Shown here: positions 12,799 through 33,381 of the stretch, piece after piece
How the letters are laid out: each line of letters starts with the position of its first letter
Position numbering within the stretch: the first letter of the stretch is position 1
DNA from: an uncultured Chloroflexia bacterium
GTDB lineage: Bacteria > Chloroflexota > Limnocylindria > QHBO01
Reading direction: 5' to 3'
Length of the DNA: 64,000 bases
Assembly (NCBI GenBank): GCA_963695195.1
Contig: CAVOGE010000007.1
Coordinates: 767,756 to 831,755, forward strand
Translations under genes and position numbers: made by a program
Notes under the pieces: generated by a model
Databases searched by the model: none
The model's input: the letters and a program-made list of their open reading frames with translations, nothing else
Told to the model about the DNA's origin: nothing

Positions 12799-13145
12799 GT
12801 CGCGCCGAGGAGGCTGCTACGGCTGTCCAGCGCGCCCTGCTGAGCTGCGTGGGCCCGGGCGCCGCCGAGCAGATCGCGCAGGCCCAGGCGCGGTTGGCGT
12901 GGGCAGAGGCGGTGGCCGCTGCCGGCCTGGAGCGCGCCGGCATGGAGTCGCGCCTGGTCCGGGTTCGGAACGGGATCGCTGATGTCGTGGCCTCGGATCC
13001 GATTCTCGCGCAGGAGCTGACGCTTCGCGCCGACGCCCTCGTGCACGGCGTCAACGCTCGCATGGCCGGACGCCCGGGCGCGACGATCGTCCTGGTCCGA
13101 CTCGCCGTAACGGTGGGTCGTGCAGGCACCGGTCGCTCCCTATAA
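12795..13145 (+). CDS. DUF721-type small protein that follows recF
   Basis: GTG start overlaps the recF stop (GTGA). Conserved position after recF. Only the 3' 351 nt of six-frame ORF 12357..13145 is used. Confidence 0.65.
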   Translation: MSRAEEAATAVQRALLSCVGPGAAEQIAQAQARLAWAEAVAAAGLERAGMESRLVRVRNGIADVVASDPILAQELTLRADALVHGVNARMAGRPGATIVLVRLAVTVGRAGTGRSL

Positions 13146-13191
13146 TCGACCACATCCCGCCGTCTCCCGGCCACCGCTCGAGCGCAGCCCC

Positions 13192-15414
13192 ATGAGCAAT
13201 CGCCTCTCCACCCGCATCGGTCTACCGGCGGCCGACGAGCGCGGAGCCGGAGCGCTGGACATCGTTCGCTTCCGCGAGCCTGCCACGGGAGCCGAGGCGC
13301 GCACAAAGGGCTCCCTGTTCGTCGTGGCGCAACTGACGGGCGGCGGCGCCCCGCTGGCCCGGGCGGTCGGCGAGGCGCTCGAGGTGCTCGAGCGCGATTT
13401 CTACTACGACATGTCGGTCGGCGCCCTGGGCGCCCTCTCGAAGGCACTGGCGGGGGCGAATCGCCGCCTCTTCCATCAGCGCGCGCGGCTCGGGATCCCC
13501 CGGCGCGGGTCGGTGAGCGTCGTTGCCCTGGTGGTCCGCGGTCGCGAGGGGCACGTGGCGAAACTGGGACCGGCCGCGGCCGTCATCGTCCGCGGGGGCC
13601 GGATGTACGAGCTGCCACCTCCGCCGGCGGCAGCCGAGGAGGATCCCCGGATCCGGACCCGCCTTGTCGCCGAGACGCTGGGCGAAGCGCTCGAGGTTCA
13701 GCCCTTCACCTGGCAGGGAGAGCTGACACCCGACGACCGGATCGCCCTGCTCTCGCGCAACCTGGCCGACCTGGTCGGGACCGATGAACTGCAGCAGGCG
13801 ATCTCCACGCTTCGGCCGGCGGCTGCGGTGGAGCACCTCCAACAGCTCTTCCGAATCCGCGGCGGGGTCGGCTCCGACGCCGTGCTGGCACTCGAGGTGA
13901 TCGAGTTGGCGGCCACGGCCACAACCCGGCAACTCGAGGCGGTGCGCCCGGCAGAACCGCTGGCTGGCCTGCCCGACCACAGCCCGGTCCCCCTGGCCGA
14001 TGCGATCGGCTCCGGGCTCCACCGTGCCGGGGATGCGATCGACGGGGCGCAGGCTCTCATCGCCAAGGGGATCCTGTACGGGGTCAACATCCTGCTCGCT
14101 TTCGTGCCGCGCCGACGGCCGGCCTACCCCACATCGATCCCGCGAACGGCGCTTCGCGAGGAGGGCCGCCGGCGTCGTCTGGGGTTGCTGGGGATGGCGG
14201 GCGTGGCGGGGCTGATGGCGGTGGGGGCGACCGTCGCGAGTCTCCCCAATCCCGACCCGACCGACGCCATCCTGCGCGCCAGCATTGCGCGGACCGCCGT
14301 GCTCGAGGCGCAGGACCTGATCGCCACGGTCAACGAGCGCGTCGGCGGTCGCGACCTGGTCGATCGCGAACCCGAGACGGCGACCGAGCTCCTGAACGCT
14401 GCGGCAGCGGCACTCCGACGAGCCACCGACGCGGGAGTCTCCTCGGTCGACCTTGCCCCCCTCGAGCGTCGGGTGGGACGCGGGCTGGACGCCGTGTACG
14501 CGGTGACCCGGATCTCCGAGACGACCACGGTCGCGGACCTGGGCGCGGCGTTCGATGACTTCGATCCGCTCGACATGGCACTCGCCGGCGATGGCTCGCT
14601 GTGGGTGATCGAGCTGGCGCGCGGTCGGGTGGTGCGGGTCGATCCGGCGACCGGGGACTCGGTGGTGGTCTATCGGTCCGGACAGGAGCTCGTCGGGGGT
14701 ATCGCGGGGGCCCCGTGGATGCTGGCCACCGCGGCTACCGACATGGTGCTGGTCGACCGCCAGCGGCAGGCGTGGCGCTTCGACCTGGTCGAGCAGGTCG
14801 CGCATCCACTCGCCATGCGCGGCCTCGACGCCGTCTCCGCCGGCAGCCACCTCCTGGCAGCGCTGCAGCACCGACCGCCGCTTGAGATCTTCAACCTCTA
14901 CCTGGTCGACGCCGCGGCCGATGAGGTTCGCAAGTGGTCGGCCGGAAGCGTCGTCCCCGTGACGTATCCGGGCGACCCCGAGCAGTTCCTCTCGGAGGCG
15001 CCCGATCTGCCCGCCGGCGCAGCGCGCGACCTGTTGGTCGACGCCAACCTGTGGCTGCTGCATTCGGACACCGTGACGCGAGTCAACTTCGGTACACCGC
15101 TCATCCAGGAGGACTACTCGCTCGACCCACCACCCGACGCGGCCGTTCGGCGGTCGCTCGGGTACACGCTGCTGGACGCCGCAACGATCGGGGAGCGGGA
15201 GCTGTTCTACGCGTACGACGCGGCCAATGCGCGGATCATCGCCTTCCAGCGAGCCGACGGCGCCTTTGTCCGGCAGTGGCTGGCGCCCCGCGACGGCGCC
15301 GAATCCGGCCTCCTCGACACGGTCCTGGCGATGACCGTCTCCTCGGTCGCCGATGGACCTCCGGCCGCCTATCTCCTGACACCGGACCGCATCGTCCGCA
15401 TCGTCCTCGAATAG
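13192..15414 (+). CDS. Membrane protein: N-terminal PP2C-like domain with catalytic Asp residues replaced, one TM helix, about 400-aa C-terminal extracytoplasmic domain
   Basis: PP2C blocks are recognisable but degenerate. LFVVAQLTGGGAPLA stands for the usual DGMGGH block. GSVSVVALVVRG...KLGPAAAVIVRGGRMYEL stands for the GDSR block. DDRIALLSRNLADLV stands for the CSDGL block. TM is LGLLGMAGVAGLMAVGATVASL. Alternative start at 13120. Confidence 0.6.
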   Translation: MSNRLSTRIGLPAADERGAGALDIVRFREPATGAEARTKGSLFVVAQLTGGGAPLARAVGEALEVLERDFYYDMSVGALGALSKALAGANRRLFHQRARLGIPRRGSVSVVALVVRGREGHVAKLGPAAAVIVRGGRMYELPPPPAAAEEDPRIRTRLVAETLGEALEVQPFTWQGELTPDDRIALLSRNLADLVGTDELQQAISTLRPAAAVEHLQQLFRIRGGVGSDAVLALEVIELAATATTRQLEAVRPAEPLAGLPDHSPVPLADAIGSGLHRAGDAIDGAQALIAKGILYGVNILLAFVPRRRPAYPTSIPRTALREEGRRRRLGLLGMAGVAGLMAVGATVASLPNPDPTDAILRASIARTAVLEAQDLIATVNERVGGRDLVDREPETATELLNAAAAALRRATDAGVSSVDLAPLERRVGRGLDAVYAVTRISETTTVADLGAAFDDFDPLDMALAGDGSLWVIELARGRVVRVDPATGDSVVVYRSGQELVGGIAGAPWMLATAATDMVLVDRQRQAWRFDLVEQVAHPLAMRGLDAVSAGSHLLAALQHRPPLEIFNLYLVDAAADEVRKWSAGSVVPVTYPGDPEQFLSEAPDLPAGAARDLLVDANLWLLHSDTVTRVNFGTPLIQEDYSLDPPPDAAVRRSLGYTLLDAATIGERELFYAYDAANARIIAFQRADGAFVRQWLAPRDGAESGLLDTVLAMTVSSVADGPPAAYLLTPDRIVRIVLE

Positions 15415-15433: not shown

Positions 15434-15964
15434 GTGAGGCTCATCGAGATGGTCGTGGAGAGCGTGCGCGTCCACATGCTCTCCAGCCAGCACGTTGTCA
15501 TCCTGAAGGAGTCGGACAGGGACCGATACCTGCCGATCTGGATCGGTCCCTCCGAGGCGAACGCCATCGCGATGCGCCTGCAGGGGCTCAACGCGGAGCG
15601 CCCGCTCACCCACGACCTGCTGGTCAGCATCGTCGGGACGCTCAACGCATCGGTGAGCCGGGTGGTGGTCACCAGCGTGACCGAGGGTACGTTCCACGCA
15701 CGCCTGTACGTGGAAGCTGCCGACGGCAGCGAGGCCGAGATCGACTCACGCACGAGCGACGCAATCGCTGTGGCAGTGCGCACCGGGTCGACCATCTACG
15801 TGGACGAGCGCGTCCTCGACGAGGCGGGGGTCACCCCAGACCGGGCGGAGGCGGGCGACGACCCCGACGAGAAGCTGGCGGTCTTCCGCGAGTTCATCAA
15901 CTCGCTCGACGTCGACCTAGGCGGTGGCGAGAAGGGGCCGCCCCGCGAGGAGTCCGGCGGCTAG
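15434..15964 (+). CDS. Bifunctional nuclease family (BFN/DUF151) protein
   Basis: VVILKESDRDRYLPIWIGPSEANAIAMRLQG...RPLTHDL matches the BFN domain core. GTG start. Confidence 0.7.
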   Translation: MRLIEMVVESVRVHMLSSQHVVILKESDRDRYLPIWIGPSEANAIAMRLQGLNAERPLTHDLLVSIVGTLNASVSRVVVTSVTEGTFHARLYVEAADGSEAEIDSRTSDAIAVAVRTGSTIYVDERVLDEAGVTPDRAEAGDDPDEKLAVFREFINSLDVDLGGGEKGPPREESGG

Positions 15965-16755
15965 GCCGTCTCCCGGCGCGTCCCCAGCACCTGCGTTCTC
16001 CGGGTCCACAGCGCCCAGCGCAGGGCCGCCAGGTCACGGAAGGTCCGCAGGATCTTGCCGATGCTGGCACCGGTGTTGGTGCCAGCCGCCCGCGGGTAGT
16101 GGTTGACGCCCACCTGGGCGGAACGCACGCCGCGGGCACGCAGCTTGATGAGCAACTCGGCCGACAGGAACGGCCCGTCGGCGTCCAGACGCAGGCCGTC
16201 GAAGACCTCGCGGCGGAAGAGCTTCATGGCGCAGTCGATGTCGCGCACGCGCAGGCCGAAGGCGACCGAGACGATGGCGTTGTAGGTCTTGGCGATGAAG
16301 ATCCGGTGGAACGGATCGCGCCGCTTGATGCGGTAGCCGATCACCGCGTCGACCGGCTTTCGGTCATCGGCCAATCGGTCGAGCAGGCGGCTCATCTCGC
16401 GCAGGTCGAACTGCAGATCACCGTCCGAGAAGCAGATCAGCTCGCCGCGCGCCTGCTCGAACCCCGCCTTCAGGGCGCCGCCGTAGCCTCGATTGACCTG
16501 GTGGTGGACGCGCACCCTCGGATCGGCGGCGGCCAGGGCATCGGCCATCGCCGGCGTGCTGTCGGTTGAGCCGTCATCGATGGCCAGGACCTCGATTGAG
16601 CTGACGAGGGGGCCGATCTCGGCCAGCGCCCGCTCGACGGTCCGCTCGATGTTCTCCTGCTCGTTGTAGGCGGGGAAGAAGAAGGTGAGCGCCGGCCGGG
16701 CGTCGTCGGACGGCGCCGAGGATGGAGCGGGGGACGGGTTCGGGTCGTGGGTCAC
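15961..16755 (-). CDS. GT2 family polyprenol-phosphate glycosyltransferase (Ppm1/DPM1-like)
   Basis: GTG start 4 nt after a perfect AAGGAGG. LAIDDGSTDST and the DxD region FSDGDLQFD are GT-A motifs. The upstream part of six-frame ORF 15961..18432 is not coding. Confidence 0.85.
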   Translation of the reverse strand: MTHDPNPSPAPSSAPSDDARPALTFFFPAYNEQENIERTVERALAEIGPLVSSIEVLAIDDGSTDSTPAMADALAAADPRVRVHHQVNRGYGGALKAGFEQARGELICFSDGDLQFDLREMSRLLDRLADDRKPVDAVIGYRIKRRDPFHRIFIAKTYNAIVSVAFGLRVRDIDCAMKLFRREVFDGLRLDADGPFLSAELLIKLRARGVRSAQVGVNHYPRAAGTNTGASIGKILRTFRDLAALRWALWTRRTQVLGTRRETA

Positions 16756-16887
16756 GCGACCTCCTTGCAGCGGGTCCGCCGTACCGTAGCGCAACCGCTC
16801 GGGGAGCGGGGCCGTCAAAGGGTCGATGTATACTCCGGCCCACCTTGGCCCACGACCGCAGGCGCCCCTGACCGGGTGCCCCCACCG

Positions 16888-19800
16888 ATGACCCGCGACT
16901 CCGTGAGGGAGCGGGGCGCGAGGCCATTCGACCGCGGCCTGCCGCTCGATCCCGCCACGTTGGTGATCCTCCTGATCGCACTGGGGGTGCTTCTTCGCGC
17001 CTTCATCGGCGGGGTCTTCGTGCCACTCTCCGGCTTCCGGATCGACGTCGGCGACTTCTCGGCCTGGGCCCAGCGGCTGGCCGCTGGCGGACCGGGCGAG
17101 TTCTACCAGGCCGACTACTTCAGTGACTACCCGCCCGGCTACATGTACGTGCTGTGGCTGCTCGGCTCGATCGGGGAGTGGCTGCGCCCGGTCTTCGGCC
17201 TGTCGATCACCCCTGGGCTGGTGAAGGTGCCCGGCATCCTGGCCGACGCGGGCGTCGCCTGGGTCCTGTTCATCTACGCCCGACGGTTCGGAGACCGATG
17301 GCTCGGCGGCTGGGGTGGCGAACGGATCGGCGTGGTCGCGGCGACGATCTACCTCTTCAACCCCGGCACCATCTTCAACGCATCGGTCTGGGGCCAGGTC
17401 GACTCGGTGGGGACGCTCGCCATCCTCGCAACGCTCTACCTTCTCGCTCGCGGCTGGACCGAGGCTGCCGCGGTGGGCGCCGTCGTGGCGCTGCTGGTGA
17501 AGTTCCAGTTCGCCTTCCTGATCCCGATCGTCGCCATCGTCGGCATCAAGCGACACCTCTTCGGCGGCTCGTCGGACCCGGAGCAGGACGGCCGCGGCGA
17601 CCCGCTTCGCGTGCTCACCTCGCTCGCGGCGGGTCTCGGAACGCTGGTCGTGCTGATCCTGCCGTTCGGGCTGGCTGTCTGGGCTCCAGCGGATCGCGCT
17701 CACTCGCTGATCGGGAAGTTCCTTGACGCGGCCGACACGTACAAGGGCCTCTCGATCAACGGGTTCAACCTGTGGCGTAACCCGTGGAGCGGACTGGGCG
17801 ACTCGTTGCAGTGGGGATGCGACGTCGCCCCGCCGACATGCCCCGACGGGCAAGGCATTGCTGTCGTGCTCGGCTCGTTTCCCGTCACCTGGCAGCTGGT
17901 GGGCACCGTCCTGTTCGCGCTCGCCGCCCTCATCGCGCTCTGGCAGATCGCGCGCCGCGACGACGCGACGGGCCTTCTCGTCGGTGCGCTGGTGCTGGCG
18001 GTGGCCTTCTACGCGCTCCCCACCCGCGTTCACGAGCGATACCTCTTCCCGGCGCTGGCGCTGGCTGCCCCGCTGGTGCTGCTGGGGCGGCGATGGATGG
18101 TCCTGTACGCGGCCCTGACCGTCGCGTTCTTTGCCAACGTCTACTGGGTCTACACGGCTGACTGGTCGTGGGCGGGAGGCAGCGTCATGAACCCGGGGCT
18201 GAACGGGGCTCCCATGCCACGCGACCCGCTGCTGGCCCAGTTCCTGTTCAACGATACCGGGATCTATCTGCTGTCGGCCGGGATCGTCGTCGTCCTCGTC
18301 TGGCTGCTCGTGCAGTCGGCGGGGATGGCGGTTCGCGCGAGCGATCTGGTCCTGGCCCCCATGCGTTCGAGCCCGCCGCCTGCCCCGGCCAGCCCGTTGC
18401 CCGAGCCGCAACTGCCGCAGCCTGCCACGCATGCGCCGATCCCTCGCAACCGACCACCCTTCCGTTCACAGGTGCGCCACCTGCTCCGCCGTGACCCGAC
18501 CGACCCGTACGCTTCGGAGCCGTCGCGGCGACTCGACCGACGTGATGCCCTGCTGCTCCTTGGACTCGTGCTCTTCGCCCTCGTCTTCCGCCTGTGGCGG
18601 CTTGACTTCCCGCGCCACTTCCACTTCGACGAGGTGTACCACGCGCGCACCGCGACCGAGATGCTCTCCGACTGGCAGGAGGGCTGGACCCGAGACACGT
18701 ACGAGTGGACGCACCCGCAACTGGCGAAGTACCTGATCGCGGCCGGGATCGCGGCGGTCGACCCCAACAAGGTGCTCGGCAGGACCGAGCTGGACGCGCC
18801 GGCCACGTCGCTGGCGGTCGCGCCCCAGCGCAGCGCCGAGGGGCGCCCCGCGTCGATCGTCTTCGCGTCCGCCGGAGACGAGACGATCACGGCCCGAGAG
18901 GTCACGTCGGGGACGGTGGTGTCGAGCTGGACGCTGAGCAGCCCGGTTGCCAGTCTCGCGTACGACGAAGACGCCAACCGGTTGCTCGTCGGGTTGGCCG
19001 ACACCGGGACCGTATCGGTGTTTGATCTGACCGCATTCCTGGGCCAGCTTGGTGAGCGGGGGCCGCCGCCGGGCGTGGCGCAGATCGAGACCGGGTTGGC
19101 CGGTATCCCCGAGATCGTCATGCCGCAGGGCCAGCCGATCATCCTCTTCCGCGGCAGCGACGGGATCGCCGAGGTGGAGCGCGAGACGGGCGCCCAGATC
19201 GCGTTCTCCAGCCTGGTCGCGAGTGGCATCGGCTACGTGCCGGCCGGCTCCGGCGAGGACGGCGCGCCGGCGCGCGTCGTCGCCATCGACCTGTCGAGCG
19301 GAAGCCTGGTGGCGCTCGACGCCGGCTCGCTCCAGCTTGATACCGGGGTGATCGGCAGCGACGGACGACTGTTCCTGCGCGCCCCTCCGACGGGACCGAT
19401 CATGGTCCAGGCGCGGGGCAAGGACACGCAGGTCTGGGTTCCGATCGGACCACTCCCCGCTGACGACGAGCACGGCCCCGTTGCCGGGGGCCTGACCGTT
19501 TTCGACGAGAAGCTGTCCGAGATCGACACGGTCCCGCTACCCGGCACCCCGCGACTGATCGGCTGGCAGTTCGTGGCCAACATCGTCTACGTCGCGGGGA
19601 CCGATCCGGCCACCGGCGAGGGCGAGGCATGGGCGGTGATGCCGCACGGCAACGGCGGCTCGCAGAGTGTTGGGTTCGCCGCATTCGACACGAGTCCGCT
19701 GCTGGGGGAGCCGCTGGCACTTGGGTTCGACATCTCCGACCACGCGGAGGGCGACGATCACGGTCGGCTGCTCGTCTCAACGAACGCATCGGCGGGCGCG

Positions 19801-21576
19801 CAGTTGGAGACGATCGATGCGGGCAGCAACGCGTTCGCCTGGCGCATCGCGGGGATCGTCTTCGGTTCGATCCTGGTCGGACTCATCTACCTGCTCACGG
19901 CGACCCTCTTCCGACGTCGACGGATCGCGGTCCTTGCAGCCGCCTTCGTGGCGATCGACGGGATGAGCTACGTCATGAGCCGGATTGCGATGAACGACAT
20001 CTTCGTGGCCACCTTCATCGTGGCCGCCTACCTGGTCTTCTGGCAGGTCTGGTCGGGGCGCTGGGTACGCAGCGCCTGGTGGGCCATGCCGCTGGTCGGC
20101 GTCCTGATCGGCCTGGCAGCCGCCAGCAAGTGGGTCGGCTGGTACGCGCTCTTCGGCCTGTGGGTCCTCGTCCTGGCGCGTTCCGGCCTCGGCCGCTTCC
20201 TGCTGGTCGCCGGTGTGGCATTCATCACCGTGGTGGGCGGCATCGGGGCCCCATGGCCGTTCCTGGTCGTCTGCCTGCTGGCACTCGGACTCGCGCTCGT
20301 CCTCGTCTGGGAGCGCCCGGTGCGCCTCACGGGCCGCGACCTGGCGGCGCTGCCGGCCATCGGCGTCGTGGCGGGCGGCATCGGCCTGGCCTTCACGATG
20401 GCCTACGGCACCGTGGAGGGGCGTGATCCGCGGAGCGCCGTGGAACTCCTCTTCGCGATCCTCGCGCGCGGCGCGCAGGCGGCGTGGCCAACCTGGCTGA
20501 TGCTGGGCGTCGCGGCCGTGCTCCTCCTGCTCCGCGCCTGGCGGTCACTGCGCGACCCCGCCAGCGACCGGCGCTGGTACCTCCCCGGCGAGCTCGGCGG
20601 CTTCGCCTGGCCGTGGGTTGGGGCGAGCCTGCTGGTCATCCCGCTGCTGGTCTACTTCGTGAGCTACGTCCCGTACCTGCAGCTCGGCCACGGCATCGCC
20701 ACGGTCGGGCAGGGGCCTGGCTACGGCTGGTCGCTCGATGAGCTGCACTCGCAGATGTTCGGCTACCACTTCGGTCTGCAGGCAGGCCACGCCGCTTCGT
20801 CGCCATGGTGGAGCTGGCCGCTCGACCTGAAGCCGGTCTGGTTCTACAGCCACTCCTTCGATGACCGGCAGATGGCGGTCATCTACAACGGCGGCAACCC
20901 GATCCTCTTCTGGGCGGGCGTCCCGGCCGTGCTCTGGGCCGCCGTCATGGCCTGGCGTCGTCGATCGCTTGCCCTCGCCGTGGTCGCCGCAGCATTCGCT
21001 TTCCAGTACCTGCCCTGGATCCGGATCGAGCGCGCCACCTTCCAGTACCACTACCTGACCGCCGTCCTCTTCTCGATGGTCGCCGTGGCCTACTTCGTCG
21101 ACGAGGGTCTTCGCTCGTGGGGATATCGGTCCCTGGCGATCGCCTTCCTGGTGGCCGTCGGGGTCGCGGGGGTGCTCGTCTTCCCACTCGGAGCCGCGCT
21201 GGTCATGCCGGACTGGTACATCAACGCAGCCCGCGCCCTGGCCCCATGGAACTACGCGTTCCAGTTCCCGTCGCCGCCGCAGGGAGAGCGTGCGCAGCTG
21301 ATCACGGCCGACAGCCTGAAGCTCGCGATCGGCACGGTCGTCTCGGTGGGCGCGGCCGCCTTCGCCCTGATGGGGCGGGACCTGCTCGGCTCCCGCGCCG
21401 CGCCGCCGCCGTCAGCCTCGACGACGGAAGGCGACCACCATGAGGAGCATGCCCACGACGACGAGCCCGAGTGGCCAGAGCCGATCGATGTCGATCTCCG
21501 GCAGGTACTCGCGGGCGAGGAAGTAGATCCCGAGCCCGATCAGGATCAGCCCGAAGACCCACGACCCGCCACCTGA
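16888..21576 (+). CDS. Giant (about 1563 aa) double-module GT-C glycosyltransferase: N-terminal polytopic GT-C module, then a PMT/ArnT-like module with a large extracytoplasmic insert
   Basis: Module 1 (about aa 1-500) is multi-TM with GT-C-like loops. A Pro-rich linker follows. Module 2 carries RLDFPRHFHFDEVYHARTA (the first-loop motif of the PMT family) and a PMT-type C-terminal 4-TM region (HSQMFGYHFGLQ...SPWWSWPLDLKPVWFY). A 350-400 aa beta-rich segment sits between TM1 and TM2 of module 2. A possible extended -10 promoter TGTATACT lies at 16822-16829. Confidence 0.8.
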   Translation: MTRDSVRERGARPFDRGLPLDPATLVILLIALGVLLRAFIGGVFVPLSGFRIDVGDFSAWAQRLAAGGPGEFYQADYFSDYPPGYMYVLWLLGSIGEWLRPVFGLSITPGLVKVPGILADAGVAWVLFIYARRFGDRWLGGWGGERIGVVAATIYLFNPGTIFNASVWGQVDSVGTLAILATLYLLARGWTEAAAVGAVVALLVKFQFAFLIPIVAIVGIKRHLFGGSSDPEQDGRGDPLRVLTSLAAGLGTLVVLILPFGLAVWAPADRAHSLIGKFLDAADTYKGLSINGFNLWRNPWSGLGDSLQWGCDVAPPTCPDGQGIAVVLGSFPVTWQLVGTVLFALAALIALWQIARRDDATGLLVGALVLAVAFYALPTRVHERYLFPALALAAPLVLLGRRWMVLYAALTVAFFANVYWVYTADWSWAGGSVMNPGLNGAPMPRDPLLAQFLFNDTGIYLLSAGIVVVLVWLLVQSAGMAVRASDLVLAPMRSSPPPAPASPLPEPQLPQPATHAPIPRNRPPFRSQVRHLLRRDPTDPYASEPSRRLDRRDALLLLGLVLFALVFRLWRLDFPRHFHFDEVYHARTATEMLSDWQEGWTRDTYEWTHPQLAKYLIAAGIAAVDPNKVLGRTELDAPATSLAVAPQRSAEGRPASIVFASAGDETITAREVTSGTVVSSWTLSSPVASLAYDEDANRLLVGLADTGTVSVFDLTAFLGQLGERGPPPGVAQIETGLAGIPEIVMPQGQPIILFRGSDGIAEVERETGAQIAFSSLVASGIGYVPAGSGEDGAPARVVAIDLSSGSLVALDAGSLQLDTGVIGSDGRLFLRAPPTGPIMVQARGKDTQVWVPIGPLPADDEHGPVAGGLTVFDEKLSEIDTVPLPGTPRLIGWQFVANIVYVAGTDPATGEGEAWAVMPHGNGGSQSVGFAAFDTSPLLGEPLALGFDISDHAEGDDHGRLLVSTNASAGAQLETIDAGSNAFAWRIAGIVFGSILVGLIYLLTATLFRRRRIAVLAAAFVAIDGMSYVMSRIAMNDIFVATFIVAAYLVFWQVWSGRWVRSAWWAMPLVGVLIGLAAASKWVGWYALFGLWVLVLARSGLGRFLLVAGVAFITVVGGIGAPWPFLVVCLLALGLALVLVWERPVRLTGRDLAALPAIGVVAGGIGLAFTMAYGTVEGRDPRSAVELLFAILARGAQAAWPTWLMLGVAAVLLLLRAWRSLRDPASDRRWYLPGELGGFAWPWVGASLLVIPLLVYFVSYVPYLQLGHGIATVGQGPGYGWSLDELHSQMFGYHFGLQAGHAASSPWWSWPLDLKPVWFYSHSFDDRQMAVIYNGGNPILFWAGVPAVLWAAVMAWRRRSLALAVVAAAFAFQYLPWIRIERATFQYHYLTAVLFSMVAVAYFVDEGLRSWGYRSLAIAFLVAVGVAGVLVFPLGAALVMPDWYINAARALAPWNYAFQFPSPPQGERAQLITADSLKLAIGTVVSVGAAAFALMGRDLLGSRAAPPPSASTTEGDHHEEHAHDDEPEWPEPIDVDLRQVLAGEEVDPEPDQDQPEDPRPAT

Positions 21577-25309: not shown

Positions 25310-26302
25310 ATGCGCACGCCACCGCCTGGCTTCGTCCTGCGCCCCTATGCCGACCTCCCGGATGTGCCGGAGATGCTCCGCGTCTTCACCGCCTCCAACG
25401 AGGCAGACGAGATCGACGAGCGGATGTCGGCCGCCGGGCTCACCACCTGGCTGAGCCATCCGAGCGAGCACTTCGATCCTGCCAACGACCTGGTGCTGGC
25501 CGAAGTGGATGGCGAGGTGGTGGGCTACGGCTGGGCCTTCTGGGTCGACACCACCGACGGCCTGCGCGAGTACCTCACGCGCGGCCACGTGCATCCCGCG
25601 TGGAGGAGACGAGGTGTCGGCAGCGCCATCATGGCGCGCAATGAGGCGCACCTGCGCGGCCTGGCCGCCAGGCACGAATCAGACCGTGAGCGGGTGATGG
25701 GAACATTCGCCGACGAGCGACGGCCCGGCGCAGTGGCGCTGGTGCTGGCGAACGGCTACCAGCCGGTCCGCTACTTCTTCGAGATGCTGCGGCCGACCCT
25801 TACCGATATCGACGTCCCGCCGATGCCGGATGGACTCGAGCTGCGGCCGGTTGGGGACCGCGACGGCTATCGGCGGATCTTCGACGCCGATGCCGAGGCC
25901 TTCATGGACCACTGGGGCGGCTTCGATGCCAGCGACGCGAGCTTCGAGGAATGGCTGGACCAGCCCGACTTCGACCCGTCGCTCTTCGTCGTGGCCTTCG
26001 ACGGTGACGAGATCGCGGGCGTCGTGATCAACGAGATCGACGCGCACGAGAACGAGGCGTTGCAGCGCAAGCGCGGGCTGCTGGCCAGCGTCTTCGTGCG
26101 GCGTCCATGGCGGCGCAGGGGCCTCGCCGCAGCGCTCGTCGCCCGCAGCCTGCTCCTCCTCCGGGAGCGCGGCATGACCAGCGCGTGGCTCGGCGTCGAT
26201 GGTGAGAATCCGACCGGGGCGCTGGGCGTCTACGAACGGGCCGGGTTCGCGGTCCATTCGCGCGGGATGCAGTACCGGAAGCCGATGGAGACAGACCGAT
26301 GA
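25310..26302 (+). CDS. Tandem double-GNAT N-acetyltransferase (MshD-like architecture), copy 1
   Basis: Two GNAT cores with RRRGVGSAIM and RRRGLAAALV acetyl-CoA binding motifs. About 330 aa. Confidence 0.75.
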   Translation: MRTPPPGFVLRPYADLPDVPEMLRVFTASNEADEIDERMSAAGLTTWLSHPSEHFDPANDLVLAEVDGEVVGYGWAFWVDTTDGLREYLTRGHVHPAWRRRGVGSAIMARNEAHLRGLAARHESDRERVMGTFADERRPGAVALVLANGYQPVRYFFEMLRPTLTDIDVPPMPDGLELRPVGDRDGYRRIFDADAEAFMDHWGGFDASDASFEEWLDQPDFDPSLFVVAFDGDEIAGVVINEIDAHENEALQRKRGLLASVFVRRPWRRRGLAAALVARSLLLLRERGMTSAWLGVDGENPTGALGVYERAGFAVHSRGMQYRKPMETDR

Positions 26303-27315
26303 GCCAAGCACCTGCAACCTCCGAGGCGCTGCGCCCGACGATCGACGGTCTCGTGGTGCGACCGTACCGGCCGGGCGACGGCCCTGCGGTCGCCGACCTG
26401 CTCAACGCCGATAACGAGGCCGACGGGCTTCCGTGGCGCGTGTCGGCCGAGGAGATCGAGAACTGGATGGCCCACCCGACCGCCGGGTTTACCGCCGAGC
26501 GTGATGCATCGGTCCTGGAGCTCGACGGTCGGATCGTGGGGCAGACCGAGGTGGAGTGGGTCGACACGACCGATGGCCTCCGCGAGTTCCGCCTTGGCTG
26601 CGCGCTGCACCCCGACGTTCGCCGGCGCGGGATCGGGCGCTGGCTGCTGCGCCTTGGCGAGGAACGCGCCGCCGAGCGCCTGGCGGAGCAGCCGACCGAG
26701 CGCCCCGTGGTGCTCGGCACCTGGTGTCCCGACCGGCGCGTCGGCAAGGTGGCGCTCATCGAGCAGGAGGGCTACCAACGTGCCCGCTACTTCTTCGACA
26801 TGGAGCGCCCCAGCCTCGACGGGATCGTCCTGCCGCCGATGCCGACCGGGATCGAGGTCCGCCCGATGCGTGAGGACCGGCTTCGGCAGCTGTGGGACGC
26901 AGATGTCGAGGCCTTCGCCGACCACTGGGGCGGCTTCGATGGTTCGGAAGCGCGGTTCAACCAGTGGCGGAACGATCCGAGATTCGATCTCGATCTGCTG
27001 GTCGTGGCCTGGGATGGTGACGAGATCGCGGGCGGTGTCGTCAACTCGATCAACGAGGCGGAGAATGCCGCCCTGGGGCGGCAGCGCGGCTGGCTCGATA
27101 GCGTCTTCGTGCGCAGACAGTGGCGCCGGCGGGGACTCGCCCGTGCCGTTGTCATGCGCTCCCTCGCACTCCTGCGCGAACGGGGAATGACGTGCGCCGG
27201 CCTCGGTGTCGACGCGGACAACGCCAACGAGGCGCTGCGCCTCTACACGGAGTGCGGATTCGTCACGGACCTGCGGTCAGCGGCGTATCGCAAGCCGATG
27301 GAGCTGGATCGATGA
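26299..27315 (+). CDS. Tandem double-GNAT N-acetyltransferase, copy 2
   Basis: Paralog of copy 1 with the same YFFEM/DHWGGFDGSE framework. The start overlaps the previous stop (ATGA). Confidence 0.75.
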   Translation: MSQAPATSEALRPTIDGLVVRPYRPGDGPAVADLLNADNEADGLPWRVSAEEIENWMAHPTAGFTAERDASVLELDGRIVGQTEVEWVDTTDGLREFRLGCALHPDVRRRGIGRWLLRLGEERAAERLAEQPTERPVVLGTWCPDRRVGKVALIEQEGYQRARYFFDMERPSLDGIVLPPMPTGIEVRPMREDRLRQLWDADVEAFADHWGGFDGSEARFNQWRNDPRFDLDLLVVAWDGDEIAGGVVNSINEAENAALGRQRGWLDSVFVRRQWRRRGLARAVVMRSLALLRERGMTCAGLGVDADNANEALRLYTECGFVTDLRSAAYRKPMELDR

Positions 27316-28322
27316 CGGTCGAGCTGCCGTACGCGCCGCCGATCCAGGGGCTGCGCTTCCGGCGCCTTGAGCGGCCCGCCGACGACGCCGCCTTGGCCGA
27401 TCTGGACAATGCGGGCTTCCGGGCCGACGGCATCGAATTCCGCCTCTCGGCGGCGCAGGTGGGCACCTGGCTCGATCACCCCTCTCGGATGGACCTGACC
27501 GAAGACCTGCTGCTCGCAGAAATCGATGGCACGCTCGTGGCGCATGCCGAGGCCGGCTGGGAGCTCGACAACGACGGGGGCCGCAATTACAACGTCTGGG
27601 GTCAGGTGCATCCGACCTGGCGCCGGCGTGGCCTCGGTAGGACGCTCCTTCGATGGAACGAGGAGCGCCAGCGCCAGGTAGGCGCGGGCCACCCCACAGG
27701 CGGCGAGCGCCGGCTACAGAGCTGGGCCGACGAAGGGGAGGTCGGCCGGCTCGCTCTGCTGGAGGCCAGCGGGTACCAGGTCGCCCGCTACGCGTTCGAA
27801 ATGACCCGGGCCACGCTGGAGGGTATCCCCGATTTCGCGCTGCCCAACGGAGTCGAGGTCCGCCCGGCGAGCGGGGCCGACATGCGCGCCATCTGGGAAC
27901 TCGAGGTCGAGGCCTTCAGCGACCATTGGGGCGCAATCGACGGCACTGAGGAGTCATTCGCACGGTTTGTCGCCGACCCGACCCACGACCGGTCGCTGTG
28001 GGTCATCGCGTGGCACCGCGACGAGATTGTTGGCCAAGTGCTCAACCGCATTAACGCAGAGGCCAATGCGGAGCTCGGAATGCTGCGCGGGCGGGTCAAC
28101 TCGGTCGGCGTGCGGAAGGCGTGGCGGCGGCAGGGGGTGGGACAGGCGCTGGTGCTGGCCAGCCTGAGGGTCTTGCGCCAAGCTGGCATGACCAGCGCGT
28201 CGCTCGGCGTCGATGCCGAGAACCCGCACGGCGCCCTGGGGATCTACGAGCGGGCCGGCTTCCAAGTCGTGCGCCGAGAACGGGTCTACCGCAAGGCGCT
28301 CGAGCAGTCGCAGCCGGGCTAG
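27312..28322 (+). CDS. Tandem double-GNAT N-acetyltransferase, copy 3
   Basis: Paralog with an ATGA overlap. RRRGLGRTLL and RRQGVGQALV motifs. Start at internal Met of six-frame ORF 27120..28322. Confidence 0.75.
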   Translation: MTVELPYAPPIQGLRFRRLERPADDAALADLDNAGFRADGIEFRLSAAQVGTWLDHPSRMDLTEDLLLAEIDGTLVAHAEAGWELDNDGGRNYNVWGQVHPTWRRRGLGRTLLRWNEERQRQVGAGHPTGGERRLQSWADEGEVGRLALLEASGYQVARYAFEMTRATLEGIPDFALPNGVEVRPASGADMRAIWELEVEAFSDHWGAIDGTEESFARFVADPTHDRSLWVIAWHRDEIVGQVLNRINAEANAELGMLRGRVNSVGVRKAWRRQGVGQALVLASLRVLRQAGMTSASLGVDAENPHGALGIYERAGFQVVRRERVYRKALEQSQPG

Positions 28323-29470
28323 CGGGACTCGACCAGTCCCGCCGCGAGGGCGCGCTCGCGCGACGTGCGATAGAACTCGACGATCTGCTCGGTCACCCGG
28401 TCCCACGAGTATTCCGGAGCCTTCTCACGGCCAGCCTCGCCCATCCGGTGACGGCGATCCGCATCATTGGCAAGTCCGTACAGCGCGGCCGCGAGTGCCC
28501 GGTGGTTGCGCGGCTCGACCAGGAGGCCCTGCACGCCCCGCTGCACCACGTTCTTGTAGCCGTGGATGTCCGACGCCACGATCGGGACTCCTGCAGCCAT
28601 CGCCTCCAGCAGCACGATGCCAAAGCTCTCCTGCCCGGTCGCCGGCGCGCAGAAGATGTCGGCACTCGCGAAGTAGCGTGCCTTGGCCTCGTCGGGGACG
28701 CGGCCCAGGAACTCGACGTCACGGATCTGGCGCAGCCCGACATAGCGGCGATACTCGCGCGCCTTCGGCCCGTTGCCGATGATCAGCAACCGGGCATCGA
28801 CGTGGCGCTTGCGGAGCCGGTGGTAGGCCTTGAGCAGGTGAATCAGGCCCTTCCGCTCCTCGAAGCGCCCGACGAACAGGATGTTGACGGTGCCGTCGCG
28901 CAGCTCTTCGAATGGTTGGGCATGGGCGAATCGGTCCAGGTCGACGCCGTTGGGGATGATCTGGTAGTCGCCGGGGAAGTAGCGGCTGGAGAAGTGCCGC
29001 GCCGCGCCGCTCACCGCGATGCGGCCGTGGAGCTTGGCGGCAAGGTGGCCGGCAAAGCGTTTCCCGACCCAGTACGACGGGGAGAAGCCACCGAACGCGT
29101 GGAAGGTGGCGACGTTCACCGTGTTCGACTGGTCGAGAACGGTCGGTGACAGGAAGGGAACGAACGGCTCGTGGAAGTGGAGCACGTCGAACCGATGCTC
29201 GGCGAGCAGGTCCCGCGCACGCTCCTTGAAGCGCCAGCTCAGGGTGACGCGGCCCATGCTGCCGTTGGCGGGGAATGCGTAGCCGGTCCCCAGCCGAATG
29301 ACATGCCCTTCGTCGGCCCGCTGCTTGCCGTACTTGCTGGTGATGATCCACACGTCGTGTCCCATCCGCAGCATGGCGTCGTAGGTGTGGCGAACGTGCT
29401 CGTTCACCCCTCCGGGGTGTGGGTAACCGTACGGGCTGACGATCCCGATCTTCAGCGGCGTCACCGCCAT
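28319..29470 (-). CDS. pimA: GT4 glycosyltransferase, PimA-like phosphatidylinositol mannosyltransferase
   Basis: IGIVSPYGYPHPGGVNEHV and GQESFGIVLLEAMAAGVPIVASD are close matches to mycobacterial PimA blocks. Last gene of the pgsA operon. Confidence 0.8.
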   Translation of the reverse strand: MAVTPLKIGIVSPYGYPHPGGVNEHVRHTYDAMLRMGHDVWIITSKYGKQRADEGHVIRLGTGYAFPANGSMGRVTLSWRFKERARDLLAEHRFDVLHFHEPFVPFLSPTVLDQSNTVNVATFHAFGGFSPSYWVGKRFAGHLAAKLHGRIAVSGAARHFSSRYFPGDYQIIPNGVDLDRFAHAQPFEELRDGTVNILFVGRFEERKGLIHLLKAYHRLRKRHVDARLLIIGNGPKAREYRRYVGLRQIRDVEFLGRVPDEAKARYFASADIFCAPATGQESFGIVLLEAMAAGVPIVASDIHGYKNVVQRGVQGLLVEPRNHRALAAALYGLANDADRRHRMGEAGREKAPEYSWDRVTEQIVEFYRTSRERALAAGLVESR

Positions 29471-30225
29471 TCCCCCGAGGGGCGCAGCGAGTGGCCGACG
29501 TGACGCGCCTTCGCGATCAGCTGGCGGCCGTAGACCGTCACGTTGTGCCAGTGCGTCCAGTACCTGCCATCCGGCTCGGTCGACTTTCCGGCGATGGCGG
29601 CGCGGTAGTCGTCGGCGGTGACGCCGGGGAACCAGGTCCAGCCGCTGCCGATCCCCTCGAGGACGTGTGCGTCGGAGTTCCCGAGCGGCGCCAGCTCGAG
29701 TAGCTCCTCGTTGGCCCGTCGTCGGCGCCCACGGCGAATCCGGCCGGCGGCGCTCGGATTCATCAACTCGATGGCGTCGAGGTGATGGTCCGGGTCTGGA
29801 TCGTGATGCAGCCTCACTAGGCTGCGGTGGCCGAGACTGGGGGTGAGGGGCGCCATGGGGTGCGCGGCAACGGCGATCCCGCCCTGGGCGTGAATCCGCT
29901 CGATCGTCTCCTCGAGCGGGCGGAGCGCCGGAATGCGTGCGGTCAGGAAGAGCCCCAGGAGGTGGCCGCGGCGCGTGGTGATCTCCTCCCCGACCACCAC
30001 GTCGAAGTGGTAGTCACCGGCATCGACGATCTCTCGGGCCCGCAGCGCCCCGTCGATGCGCTCGTGATCGGTGATCGCCACCAGGTCGAGGGTGGTGTTC
30101 CGCTCGACATGGTCGAGGAGCTCCCCGACGCCCATCGTGCCATCAGAGTAGAGCGTGTGCAGGTGCATGTCCGCGCGCCCGCGTGGATCGCCGCCGCGCG
30201 GCCGGCGCACCGCTCCGAGGTTCAT
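29461..30225 (-). CDS. PHP-domain metal-dependent phosphoesterase
   Basis: MHLHTLYSDG and the later HD, H and DAH metal-ligand motifs are typical of the PHP family. The ATG at 30225 overlaps the upstream stop (ATGA). Alternative start at 30168. Confidence 0.75.
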   Translation of the reverse strand: MNLGAVRRPRGGDPRGRADMHLHTLYSDGTMGVGELLDHVERNTTLDLVAITDHERIDGALRAREIVDAGDYHFDVVVGEEITTRRGHLLGLFLTARIPALRPLEETIERIHAQGGIAVAAHPMAPLTPSLGHRSLVRLHHDPDPDHHLDAIELMNPSAAGRIRRGRRRRANEELLELAPLGNSDAHVLEGIGSGWTWFPGVTADDYRAAIAGKSTEPDGRYWTHWHNVTVYGRQLIAKARHVGHSLRPSGEWR

Positions 30226-31121
30226 TGCGCCTCCCCGTCAGCAAGATCGGGCCAGAGCGGCTGAAAGGTCGCCCACCACTGCTCGGGCATGGGCGCGATC
30301 AGCTCTTCGAAGCGCCGCGCCATGGCGTCGGTGAGGGCGGCGACATCATGCTGTCGATCGCCGGTGAGCGGAGCCTCGACCGGGTAGGCCCGCCCCCGGA
30401 AGCGCTCCTGCCCGACGCGCCAGCAGGCGGCCGCCACGAGTGGCCGACCGGTGAGCAGCGAGAGCGCAGCGGGGCCGGACGGCAGGGTCGTCGGGTGGCC
30501 GAAGAGCGTGGCCGGCAGCCCGTTCCCGGCGAGATCGCGGTCACCGGCGAGTGCCACCATGGTGCCGGCTCGCAGCGCGGCGATCATCGGCCGGCGGGCC
30601 TTCGCGAGTGGGATCAGGGTGACTCCGCGTCCCGTCCCGCGCCGAGCCGTCATGAAGTCGTGGATCTCGCGAGGCTTCAGCACCTCCATCGGTGCGACCG
30701 CATGGATCCCGTTCGACGCCAGAAAGGTCCCGTACGGCTCGAAGTTTCCGAAATGGATGGTGGCCACCACGGCCCCTTCGCGCAGGATCGGTCCCCAGTG
30801 GTCCCAGTCGTCGGCGACCACCATGCGGCCGATCCGCTCGACCGAGTAGTGCGGGATGCGCAGCACCTCGAGGTAGTAGCGGGCGTGGGCCACGAAGGCA
30901 TCGCGCACCAGCCGCCGGAATGCCGGCCCACGGCTCGGCCGGCCGGTCGCCGCGGAGACCCGCGCGAGCTGGTCGGTCACCAGCGCCCGGCGCTCATCGG
31001 CGAGTCGATGCCATACCCGCCCGACCAGATCAGCCAGCGCGTACGCGAGCGGGCGAGGCAACGAGATCGCGACGATATCGGCGGCACGCAGGCCGAGCCG
31101 AAGCAGGGCACCGCGCATCAC
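30222..31121 (-). CDS. Lysophospholipid/lipid A-type acyltransferase (HtrB/PatA-like), copy 1
   Basis: LPLAT superfamily fold. HtrB-like blocks HFGNFE and PSGPAALS. Confidence 0.75.
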   Translation of the reverse strand: MMRGALLRLGLRAADIVAISLPRPLAYALADLVGRVWHRLADERRALVTDQLARVSAATGRPSRGPAFRRLVRDAFVAHARYYLEVLRIPHYSVERIGRMVVADDWDHWGPILREGAVVATIHFGNFEPYGTFLASNGIHAVAPMEVLKPREIHDFMTARRGTGRGVTLIPLAKARRPMIAALRAGTMVALAGDRDLAGNGLPATLFGHPTTLPSGPAALSLLTGRPLVAAACWRVGQERFRGRAYPVEAPLTGDRQHDVAALTDAMARRFEELIAPMPEQWWATFQPLWPDLADGEAQ

Positions 31122-32170
31122 GATGGCCGCTTCGTCCAGTCTTCGCCACGACGCGCCATCTCCAGGGCGTCACGCGCGCTGGCTCGATCGGCGTCGGTCA
31201 CCGGCCAGATCGGTCGGAACATGTACCACTGGCCGGGGTCTGCCGCGATCACCCCGCCCAGCGCGTCCGCCAGGGCCTGGGTGGCGCGATAGATCTCGGC
31301 CGGCTCATCGCTGGTGGCGCGGATCAGTGGCAGGCCGCGTGTGCGAAACGACTCATCGGCCTGGCGGGAGCATGCGACGGGAAGCATCGGCGCCCCCGAC
31401 CGTGCCGAGAGCGCGGCCGGCCCGGAGGGGAAGGTGGTGGCCTCGCCGAGGAATTCGACCGGGACGTCTCCTGCCCGGTATCCGCCGTCGCAGAAGAGGA
31501 CCAGGTTCTCGCCGCTCCGCAGCGCGCGGATCAGGCCGCGCAGCTTGCGCCAGCCGATCAGCGTCAGGCCGTGTCGTGCCCGGATCTTGACGAGGTGGTC
31601 GTAGAGACGGCCATAGGTCGTGTCATCGGCGACAACGTGGAGCCCATAGCCGTGGCGGTGCAGCGCCGGGGCGATGAGGTCCATGCCGCCCACGTGGACG
31701 GTGCACAACAGGACGCCGCGGTCATCGGCGCGGGCCTCGACCAGCAGTTCCAGGTTGTCGATCTGGACCAGCTGCTCGACATCCTCCTCCCGAAGATCGG
31801 CCAGCCGCATCATGTCGACGAGGTACTTGGCGTAGTTGCGGAACGCTCGTCTCGCGGCACGACGAACGGTGCGGTGATCCGCCGGCAGGCCGGCGGCGCG
31901 GGCGAGGTTCTCACCGACCACGACGCGCTTTGCCGCAGACAAGTCGTAGGCGGCGTTCCCCGCGGCCGAGGCGATGCGCAGCACGATCGACCGCGGCAGG
32001 AGGTTGATGAGCCGTTCCGCCACCCGGTAGGCGGCGTAGGTCAGCAACTCGCGCCTGCGCTCCGAGCTGGAGGCGGACGATCCGCGGGACGAGGTCTGCG
32101 GCGGCGAGCCTGCCGGTTGGTCGACCACGGAGGACGAGGCTGTCACGGTCTCGATGGGAACCGGGTTCAA
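31118..32170 (-). CDS. Lysophospholipid/lipid A-type acyltransferase (HtrB/PatA-like), copy 2
   Basis: Paralog of 30222..31121 with HVGGMD and PSGPAALS blocks. 4-nt overlaps with both neighbours. Confidence 0.75.
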
Positions 32171-33375: not shown

Positions 33376-33381
33376 GCTGTC

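Follow-up and report, generated by a model that had tools for sequence, protein, structure and literature searches.

Protein O-mannosylation in bacteria has been studied almost wholly in Actinobacteria, where the pathway comprises a GT2 Ppm synthase, a GT39 protein O-mannosyltransferase (PMT) and the GT87 elongator PimE; target selection and the elongating enzyme outside mycobacteria are still open questions (PMC12757957). Experiments have shown four residues of MtPMT to be essential: D74, D176, R441 and Y444 (PMC12331936). In streptococci, the Pgf system for protein O-glycosylation uses a single GT2 together with two GT-C enzymes (PMC11127046; PMC12041528).

Within a 64-kb window (the whole stretch of DNA analysed) from a soil Chloroflexota bacterium, the ORF at 16888..21576 on the + strand encoded a single membrane protein of 1562 aa with two GT-C modules, which were joined, as the earlier note had proposed, by a Pro-rich linker. 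The upstream GTG 16747 was rejected as a start, because it overlaps with the start codon of the GT2 gene and the alignments of homologues begin at the ATG at 16888. More than 800 protein clusters (90% identity level) matched the fusion protein at E <= 1e-5. The best 120 of these were about 1200-1650 aa long and 54-90% identical to the query, which most of them covered nearly in full. A second subfamily, at ~34% identity, had the same architecture at the same syntenic site. Homologues with a named source were nearly all from Chloroflexota, class Limnocylindria, and all members of the family were from uncultured MAGs. No description of a two-GT-C fusion was found in the open-access literature searched.

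The N-terminal module (aa 1-488; 16888..18351, + strand) was polytopic and of the ALG6/PIG-M/ALG3/PimE (GT87-like) type. It had the polytopic fold of GT-C_A enzymes and was superimposable on solved GT-C structures, its top fold matches being ALG6 (GT57), GPI mannosyltransferase I/PIG-M (GT50) and ALG3 (GT58) at 12-16% identity. Sequence searches of the PDB returned chance matches only, to glutamate receptor 2 (E 0.06-0.6), and the family assignment therefore rests on the fold and on weak Pfam matches. PIG-U was the sole significant Pfam match of the query module, and Pfam GT87 (PF09594) did not match it even at E<=10. PF09594 was present, however, in 3 of the best 120 close homologues, and among the 31 sequences scanned in alignment A3 there were matches to GT87 (6), Alg6_Alg8 (10) and PIG-U (8). 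Relatives also occurred as standalone proteins of ~450-550 aa, named “glycosyltransferase 87 family protein”. The module was GT-C both by fold and by Pfam, in agreement with the earlier note. The two modules are not “unrelated”, as had been claimed, since the best matches (ALG6, PimE, ArnT and PMT) are all GT-C, although the two modules fall into different families. A fusion across two GT-C subclasses was also considered and dropped: ALG6 is classed as GT-C_A, together with ArnT, PglB and PimE (PMC12041525).

The candidate catalytic Asp of the N-module was D53 (17044..17046), which follows TM1 (aa 22-44) and lies at the start of a helix (51-67), an acidic residue placed as in GT-C_A enzymes. 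All 49 close and all 31 distant sequences carried this Asp. In relatives 30-38% identical, the invariant polar residues were D53, K113, D120, Q170, K205, N294, T379, H382, E383, R384 and Y385. Judged by position alone, D53 would be equivalent to D58 of PimE or to the catalytic Asp of ALG6.

By its domain matches, the C-terminal module is a member of the GT39/PMT family or superfamily. It consisted of TM1 with the head of external loop 1 (EL1; aa 549-628; 18532..18771, + strand), which carries the DE motif (D581 E582; 18628..18633) and an HPxLAKYL helix, and of a transmembrane core (aa 978-1504; 19819..21399, + strand) with R1032..D1037 in EL2 and R1382..F1385 in EL5. The PMT motif on which the earlier identification had relied proved significant, as both PMT (PF02366, 51.1 bits) and PMT_4TMC (PF16192, 63 bits) scored above their Pfam cut-offs of 22.7 and 32.4. 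The head of loop 1 aligned to yeast Pmt1 and Pmt2 at vfDEvhf and hPPLaKml. In the alignment with ScPmt1, D581/E582 corresponded to D77/E78, R1032..D1037 to R184..D189 and R1382..F1385 to R649..F652. Residues F580, D581, E582, Y584, H585 and R587 were invariant in 49 sequences, as were R1032, D1037 and R1382, while the F1385 position was invariant in all but the query. The four catalytic-site residues essential in MtPMT all had counterparts in this module, three of them invariant. The core was 75% identical across homologues. Identity to solved PMTs was low, with matches restricted to the motif regions, and the NCBIfam Pmt equivalog NF058602 scored 28.5 bits where 800 are required, spanning only aa 1286-1402. 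The C-module is therefore no orthologue of the Pmt of Actinobacteria.

The beta-rich insert reported earlier between TM1 and TM2 of this module was found to be a seven-bladed beta-propeller (aa ~629-977; 18772..19818, + strand), located in EL1 ahead of TM2. Its 7 blades, each four-stranded, comprised some 28 strands, and it was superimposable on solved propellers. Its length was kept across homologues (~1% gaps), which is consistent with purifying selection. No PMT with a propeller was found described in the open-access literature searched. A folded propeller in the catalytic loop of a PMT would be a previously undescribed attachment of a putative acceptor-recognition domain, and this mode of attachment makes it an attractive structural target for the study of substrate selection.

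The linker (aa 489-548; 18352..18531, + strand) was basic and 28% Pro. It was only 26% identical to the query among homologues, compared with 66-75% for the modules, had pLDDT <50, and is probably cytoplasmic and disordered. The acidic, poorly conserved C-terminal tail with the stop codon (aa 1505-1562; 21400..21576, + strand) overlapped the 3′ end of a convergent PspC-like gene by 165 nt.

A GT2 glycosyltransferase of 264 aa (15961..16755, - strand; Pfam Glycos_transf_2, 1.5e-30) was transcribed divergently from the fusion gene. A longer ORF on the same strand (15961..18432, 823 aa) was rejected, as it merely continues the GT2 frame; the gene itself starts with the GTG at 16755, behind AAGGAGG. 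The catalytic domain of the GT2 and the interface-helix region that follows were homologous to the solved DPM1/Ppm1/ArnC/GtrB members, with PDB matches to ArnC (3e-19, aa 23-244), P. furiosus DPMS (3.4e-12) and GtrB (4.9e-10). The GT2 belongs, on this homology, to the polyprenyl-phosphate-sugar synthase clade, and its nearest match by sequence is ArnC, not a mannose synthase. The ArnC, GtrB and PgfS models were all matched below the equivalog threshold, the top score being ArnC-type (77.8 bits against 529). The earlier note had called the protein Ppm1-like: the synthase type held, but ArnC was closer than DPMS, and as no NCBIfam equivalog threshold was reached, the name can be used only by analogy. 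No TM helix was found in the GT2 (maximum Kyte-Doolittle 19-residue score 1.36).

The GT2 was 77-97% identical across relatives and was adjacent to and divergent from the fusion gene in 50 of the 50 informative related loci. This adjacency is part of a class-wide synteny and, taken alone, is weak evidence for functional coupling. Most relatives had a third, TMEM260-like GT-C gene between the GT2 and the fusion gene, and in two loci (L080 and L082) the GT2 was fused to a TMEM260-like GT-C. The TMEM260 family takes its name from a protein O-mannosyltransferase. Distant loci carried a polytopic gene (455-507 aa) inside the GT2 operon, for which the Pfam search found no family. A scan of ORFs from 10.8 to 34.3 kb gave no flippase gene (GtrA, SMR or MATE).

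In the divergent intergenic region (16756..16887), an alignment of 15 loci showed an invariant TATACT (16829..16834), with a conserved CCACCTTG 3′ of it. A sigma-70 consensus scan of 15.3-22.2 kb returned no promoter, so TATACT with CCACCTTG is only a putative -10 element of the fusion gene. The terminator scan of the same interval gave one terminator-like site, inside a coding region and at or below shuffle expectation. Rfam had no match in the region; the sole match in the window was a tmRNA (3585..3949).

A PI/PIM-like lipid operon (28319..34296, - strand) lay 6.7 kb downstream of the fusion gene. All on the - strand, it comprised a PIP synthase (33382..34296), Ino1 (32167..33375), two PatA-like acyltransferases (31118..32170 and 30222..31121), a PHP hydrolase (29461..30225) and a GT4 (28319..29470). 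Neither this operon nor the TMEM260-like third GT-C had been noticed in the earlier note. Scores for PatA, the PIP synthase and Ino1 were all under the NCBIfam cut-offs, and the GT4 had no PimA-specific match. In the distant subfamily the operon was directly convergent with the fusion gene (L079, L080, L081 and L084). Judging by this operon, Limnocylindria may make glycolipids based on inositol, which would bear on the cell envelope type of these uncultured bacteria. No description of PIMs in Chloroflexota was found in the open-access literature searched.

We give an even chance to the reading that the locus encodes an extracytoplasmic glycosylation pathway with a polyprenyl-phosphate-sugar donor and two transferase steps in one polypeptide, that is, actinobacterial-type O-mannosylation with initiator and elongator fused. 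Its observed basis consists of what the domains are, of catalytic residues and a fusion that are both conserved, and of a GT2 that stays adjacent across loci. In such a pathway the GT2, peripheral on the cytoplasmic side, would charge polyprenyl phosphate with a hexose (most likely mannose), and a flippase would move the product across the membrane to its outer side. There the GT39/PMT module would transfer the first sugar to Ser/Thr of exported proteins. The EL1 propeller, which would lie by the catalytic Asp-Glu, may recruit acceptors, a role comparable to that of the MIR, TPR and WW-like domains of other O-mannosyltransferases. The N-terminal module would then extend this with more hexose(s), drawn from the same donor, in the manner of PimE/GT87 in Actinobacteria, with both catalytic loops facing outward and the Pro-rich linker in the cytoplasm. 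Which sugar is used, what accepts it, in which order the modules act and what the propeller does are all presumptive. Against this reading stand the nearness of the GT2 to ArnC, the lack of a GT87 match in the query N-module, the low Pmt equivalog score and low identity to solved PMTs, the negative flippase result, and the nearby lipid operon, which would fit a lipid acceptor.

An artefact was also considered, in which a frameshift, misassembly or an overlooked stop codon would have joined two separate genes. In L081 and L084 the N- and C-modules were adjacent separate genes: L081 had an in-frame stop within the linker, and in L084 the modules were called as two genes. However, these apparent splits came from long-read MAGs in which other genes were visibly fragmented (L082), and the ORF was unbroken in many independent assemblies from varied sources and sequencing projects, at 54-91% identity. 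The alignments also ran without a gap at the module junction and the second subfamily shared the architecture. The artefact reading is effectively refuted, with a vanishingly small probability, and a genuine conserved fusion at 16888..21576, free of frameshift or misassembly, is confirmed. Its occurrence in two subfamilies, together with the adjacent split genes of L081 and L084, forms a Rosetta-stone pattern. It is also improbable that only the PMT module is catalytic. PIG-U is a GT-C-fold protein that is non-catalytic and part of the GPI transamidase, and the N-module could likewise be non-enzymatic, binding a polyprenyl or PI lipid or acting as a scaffold or dimerisation partner that mimics Pmt1-Pmt2, whose pairing is obligate. 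Its top fold matches are nevertheless active transferases, its invariant polar set includes an Asp at the usual GT-C catalytic position, and its standalone version is named GT87.

The main rival to the protein pathway is the assembly of a lipoglycan or PI-glycolipid, because of the nearby PI/PIM-like operon. Both GT-C modules would extend a PI-anchored mannoside or mannan (PIM/LM-like), begun in the cytoplasm by the products of that operon, and proteins would be a secondary acceptor or none. Propellers can also bind carbohydrate, and the insert would here serve in carbohydrate binding, as the CBMs of EmbC and AftD do. We regard this as possible, at clearly less than even probability. The position of the operon, 6.7 kb away in the window and convergent in four distant loci, is in its favour, although it may reflect mere inherited synteny, and the operon scores noted above fall short of PIM-specific assignments. 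The N-module resembles both PIG-M, whose substrate for mannosylation is GlcN-PI, and PimE, which adds mannose to PIM4 and acts on PIMs as well as mannoproteins (PMC12757957; PMC12041525). The C-module, on the other hand, matches the GT39-specific models PMT and PMT_4TMC and keeps the peptide- and donor-pocket residues of PMTs, and protein O-mannosylation is the sole GT39 activity described in PMC12331936 and PMC12757957.

Returning to protein O-mannosylation, we tentatively suggest, again at clearly less than even odds, that the fused enzyme is a self-contained line in which the propeller captures, GT39 initiates and the GT87-like module elongates, the mannose donor being common to a PIM-like pathway. 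If so, soil Limnocylindria would have an actinobacterial-type envelope of mannoproteins and PI-mannolipids, and the fusion would be evidence, at the genomic level, for GT87 enzymes as the dedicated partners of PMTs in bacteria. A conserved GT87-like::GT39 fusion beside a donor synthase is Rosetta-stone evidence that both GT-C families cooperate, and would extend the O-mannosylation pathway to an uncultured, abundant soil phylum-level lineage. The overall interpretation of the earlier note is supported; of its claim that the architecture is not seen in model organisms, the fusion and the propeller insert stand, but the GT2+GT39+GT87 logic is that of the known actinobacterial pathway (PMC12757957).

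The same three enzyme types occur here as in actinobacterial Ppm1 (GT2), Pmt (GT39; M. tuberculosis Rv1002c) and PimE (GT87). Actinobacterial Pmt shares with the C-module the DE motif, the EL2 Asp and the R-x2-[YF] of EL5, and the outward-facing active sites of that pathway match those predicted here. Unlike in Actinobacteria, where GT39 and GT87-like enzymes are separate proteins, the two form one polypeptide, and the host belongs to Chloroflexota. MtPMT has a WW-like motif in EL4, whereas a propeller of ~350 aa is in EL1 here. In the GtrB/GtrA/Gtr*, ArnC/ArnT and PgfS plus PgfM1/PgfM2 systems, a polyprenyl-phosphate sugar made by a GT2 is likewise used outside by a GT-C. However, three-component systems have a flippase and none of the GtrA, SMR or MATE type was seen next to this locus, ArnC and GtrB carry C-terminal TM helices that this GT2 lacks, and their GT-C is YfhO or Gtr* in place of fused GT39 and GT87-like modules. 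ALG6, PIG-M and ALG3 resemble the N-module in fold, yet share little identity with it and contrast with its bacterial context; Alg6_Alg8 Pfam matches occur in only some of its relatives. Eukaryotic PMT1/2/4 (MIR) and TMTC1-4 and TMEM260 (TPR) combine a GT-C core with an extracytoplasmic acceptor-selecting domain, as proposed here, and PMT1/2/4 have the PMT and PMT_4TMC domains in common with the C-module. No MIR or TPR was detected in the fusion protein. The accessory domain is instead a beta-propeller in loop 1, whereas in the eukaryotic enzymes MIR occupies loop 5 and the TPRs come after the C-terminus; a second GT-C module is also fused here.

The large gene runs on the + strand from an ATG at 16888 to a stop codon at 21574-21576 and encodes 1562 aa. 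The 264-aa GT2 gene (15961..16755, - strand), which has a GTG start with AAGGAGG 5 nt upstream, is divergent from it with a spacing of 132 bp, and G+C content is ~69% across the window. An in-frame GTG at 16747 was rejected as the start of the large gene, since it would run into the first codon of the adjacent gene, and the alignments of all homologues begin at the ATG at 16888. A search of 5.8 billion proteins with the large protein recovered 812 clusters at E <= 1e-5. The best 120 of the 812 were ~1200-1650 aa long and 54-90% identical to the query, which was nearly all covered in most of them; shorter members among these 120 were labelled partial or came from short contigs, and the names, where given, were "phospholipid carrier-dependent glycosyltransferase" from Chloroflexota or Candidatus Limnocylindria MAGs. 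A second subfamily (1640-1950 aa, more than 1270 clusters; pairwise BLASTP identity with the window protein ~34%) had the same architecture, insert included, in the identical syntenic position.

Scanning one genome per species detected 78 loci carrying the large gene. A few were labelled as Steroidobacteraceae, Methylomirabilota, Zixiibacteriota or Dormiibacterota, which we read as binning errors since the gene order was identical wherever the contig was long enough. The earlier note had raised the prospect of a frameshift or misassembly joining two genes. Such an artefact was excluded, because the module junction is ungapped in the homologue alignments. In two related loci, L081 (7001..12154) and L084 (6001..11164), the syntenic site has two neighbouring gene calls, one for the N-module (485-508 aa) and one for the PMT module with its propeller (1000-1231 aa); in L081 the linker contains one in-frame stop, with a GTG immediately after it. 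This split may be real or, since both are long-read MAGs, a sequencing error. In a related protein of 2390 aa (P0221), ~890 extra residues that include hydrophobic stretches separate the N-module from the PMT module, and this protein may be a three-module version.

Conservation was uneven along the protein. Identity of the homologues to the query was 66% in the N-module (aa 17-488), 26% in the linker (aa 489-548; 28% Pro, net basic), 68% in PMT TM1 (aa 549-572), 76% in the head of external loop 1 (EL1, aa 573-632), 52% in the insert with ~1% gaps (aa 633-978), 75% in the PMT core (aa 979-1450) and 48% in the C-terminal region (aa 1451-1562), falling to 25-41% in the acidic tail past aa 1500. 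Under the positive-inside rule basic segments are cytoplasmic. The N-terminus and the linker are both basic and fit the cytoplasmic side, a topology we infer from charge; this would place the first external loops of both modules outside the membrane. The 3′ end of the gene, encoding the acidic tail, shares 165 nt (21412..21576) with the end of the PspC-like gene that converges on it, and this overlap covers the LiaI-LiaF-like TM region of the PspC-like gene. Overlaps of ~95-140 nt between the two genes recur in relatives.

The C-module exceeded the Pfam cut-offs for both PMT (51 bits against 22.7) and PMT_4TMC (63 bits against 32.4), so the PMT assignment, which by the earlier note would fall if the motif hits were insignificant, held. 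A profile of 49 homologues aligned in three blocks to yeast Pmt1, Pmt2 and a third PMT: the DE motif (D581, E582; Pmt1 D77/E78) with the HPxLAK helix, the EL2 motif S-R1032-IAMN-D1037 (Pmt1 R184..D189) and the EL5 motif R1382-AT-F1385 (Pmt1 R649..F652). D581, E582, R1032, D1037 and R1382 were invariant in the 49 sequences, as was F1385 in all except the query. The counterparts of these aligned positions in the M. tuberculosis PMT are D74, D176, R441 and Y444, each essential by mutagenesis (PMC12331936). The NCBIfam Pmt equivalog was far from reached (28.5 bits, cut-off 800). The C-module is thus, as judged from sequence, a GT39-type enzyme and not an orthologue of actinobacterial Pmt. In the AF2 model of aa 540-1562 (pLDDT 77, pTM 0.79), two EL1 helices are followed by the 28 beta-strands of the predicted propeller (pLDDT mostly >85) and then by TM2.

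The N-module (aa 1-545 modelled by AF2 with pLDDT 81 and pTM 0.83) had PIG-U (6e-6) as its sole Pfam hit. Pfam matches in relatives were to Alg6_Alg8, PIG-U or GT87. When 1.84 billion representatives were searched, 3549 relatives came up, either as standalone proteins of 430-580 aa, named "glycosyltransferase 87 family protein" where named, or forming the N-terminal part of long fusions. D53, where the first loop helix begins, was invariant down to 30-38% identity, as were K113, D120, Q170, K205, N294 and the T-x2-HERY motif; the invariance of these polar residues speaks for catalytic activity. The GT-C_A class takes in ALG6, ArnT, PglB and PimE (PMC12041525), and with ALG6 in that class we do not claim a fusion across GT-C subclasses.

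The GT2 protein matched Pfam GT2 (1.5e-30), and its best PDB match was ArnC (3e-19, over aa 23-244), followed by the P. furiosus dolichyl-phosphate-mannose synthase (3.4e-12) and GtrB (4.9e-10). It reached no NCBIfam equivalog cut-off and had no hydrophobic segment (maximum Kyte-Doolittle 19-residue score 1.36). By homology it is thus a peripheral polyprenyl-phosphate-sugar synthase whose sugar the sequence does not fix. The enzyme type proposed in the earlier note therefore stands, while its label "Ppm1-like" is an analogy. The divergent intergenic region contains an invariant TATACT (16829..16834) and a conserved CCACCTTG (16840..16847) in 15 loci, including relatives with ~55% protein identity. 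These may form a promoter core; a sigma-70 consensus scan did not pick them up.

The class-wide gene order is recF, a conserved 764-aa ORF, the bifunctional nuclease, GT2 (-), the large gene (+), PspC-like (-), LiaF-like (-) and ABC. Each of the 50 loci whose upstream sequence extends to 2.6 kb or more has the divergent GT2. In 33 of the 50, a TMEM260-like GT-C gene (PF11028, 3e-30; L020 6303..7955, - strand) lies between GT2 and the large gene, upstream of GT2 and overlapping it; it is absent from the window. This GT-C gene and GT2 form one ORF of 811-828 aa in loci L080 (4064..6499) and L082 (3001..5487), which links a GT-C protein with the synthase presumed to make its donor. The TMEM260-like/GT2 operon of the distant subfamily begins with an additional polytopic membrane gene of 455-491 aa (- strand; L079 6496..7863, L080 6496..7971, L081 5503..6906) that matches no Pfam family and may encode either a fourth GT-C or the flippase that is otherwise missing. 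The 764-aa ORF (13120..15414, +), between recF and the nuclease gene, was 55-91% identical in 53 loci; it matches no Pfam family and has a single hydrophobic segment in its centre. A 732-aa ORF opposite it, only ~40% conserved, is likely a shadow ORF. Downstream of an ABC ATPase and an ABC-2 permease gene are three tandem paralogues of 330-400 aa, each with a C-terminal GNAT acetyltransferase domain (25310..28322, +). A tmRNA gene lies at 3585..3949 (+; Rfam RF00023, 133 bits).

In the distant subfamily an operon comprising GT4, PHP, two acyltransferases, Ino1 and PIP synthase lies immediately next to the large gene, in convergent orientation. The same operon is found in the window on the - strand (28319..34296, or to 34369 with an HTH regulator), with a PHP hydrolase and a GT4. 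Its best NCBIfam matches were all somewhat below the cut-offs: phosphatidylinositol phosphate synthase 154.8 bits (cut-off 170), inositol-3-phosphate synthase 556 bits (638) and, for the two PatA-like proteins, phosphatidylinositol mannoside acyltransferase 141 and 148 bits (209). The operon resembles the mycobacterial pgsA1-patA-pimA cluster and points to glycolipids built on PI, perhaps with mannose and acyl groups, in this Chloroflexota lineage. The large protein might accordingly assemble a PI-anchored mannolipid or lipoglycan jointly with this operon. We regard this main rival to protein O-mannosylation as possible but less likely. The two readings are not mutually exclusive, since PimE itself serves both pathways. 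A PIG-U-like, non-catalytic N-module is conceivable, but we disfavour it as improbable.

Public databases already contain members of the family, uncharacterised and with a generic name. Searches of the open-access literature found no paper on a GT-C::GT-C fusion, on a PMT with a propeller or on Limnocylindria envelope glycobiology. Neither the enzyme types nor the logic of the pathway is new; the novelty lies in the fusion, the loop-1 propeller and the phylum.

Actinobacterial protein O-mannosylation uses a GT2 polyprenyl-phosphate-mannose synthase and a flippase; a GT39 PMT attaches the first mannose, and elongation is the task of PimE or of other GT87 members (PMC12757957). By analogy, the GT2 would make the donor for both modules, the PMT module would initiate on acceptors recruited by the propeller, and the N-module would then elongate. 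We favour this reading, giving it an even chance of being correct, because the locus has counterparts of the three enzyme types of the actinobacterial pathway. A GT2 and a GT39 are common to both systems, and the N-module is GT87-like; unlike in Actinobacteria, the GT87-like and GT39 modules are fused here.
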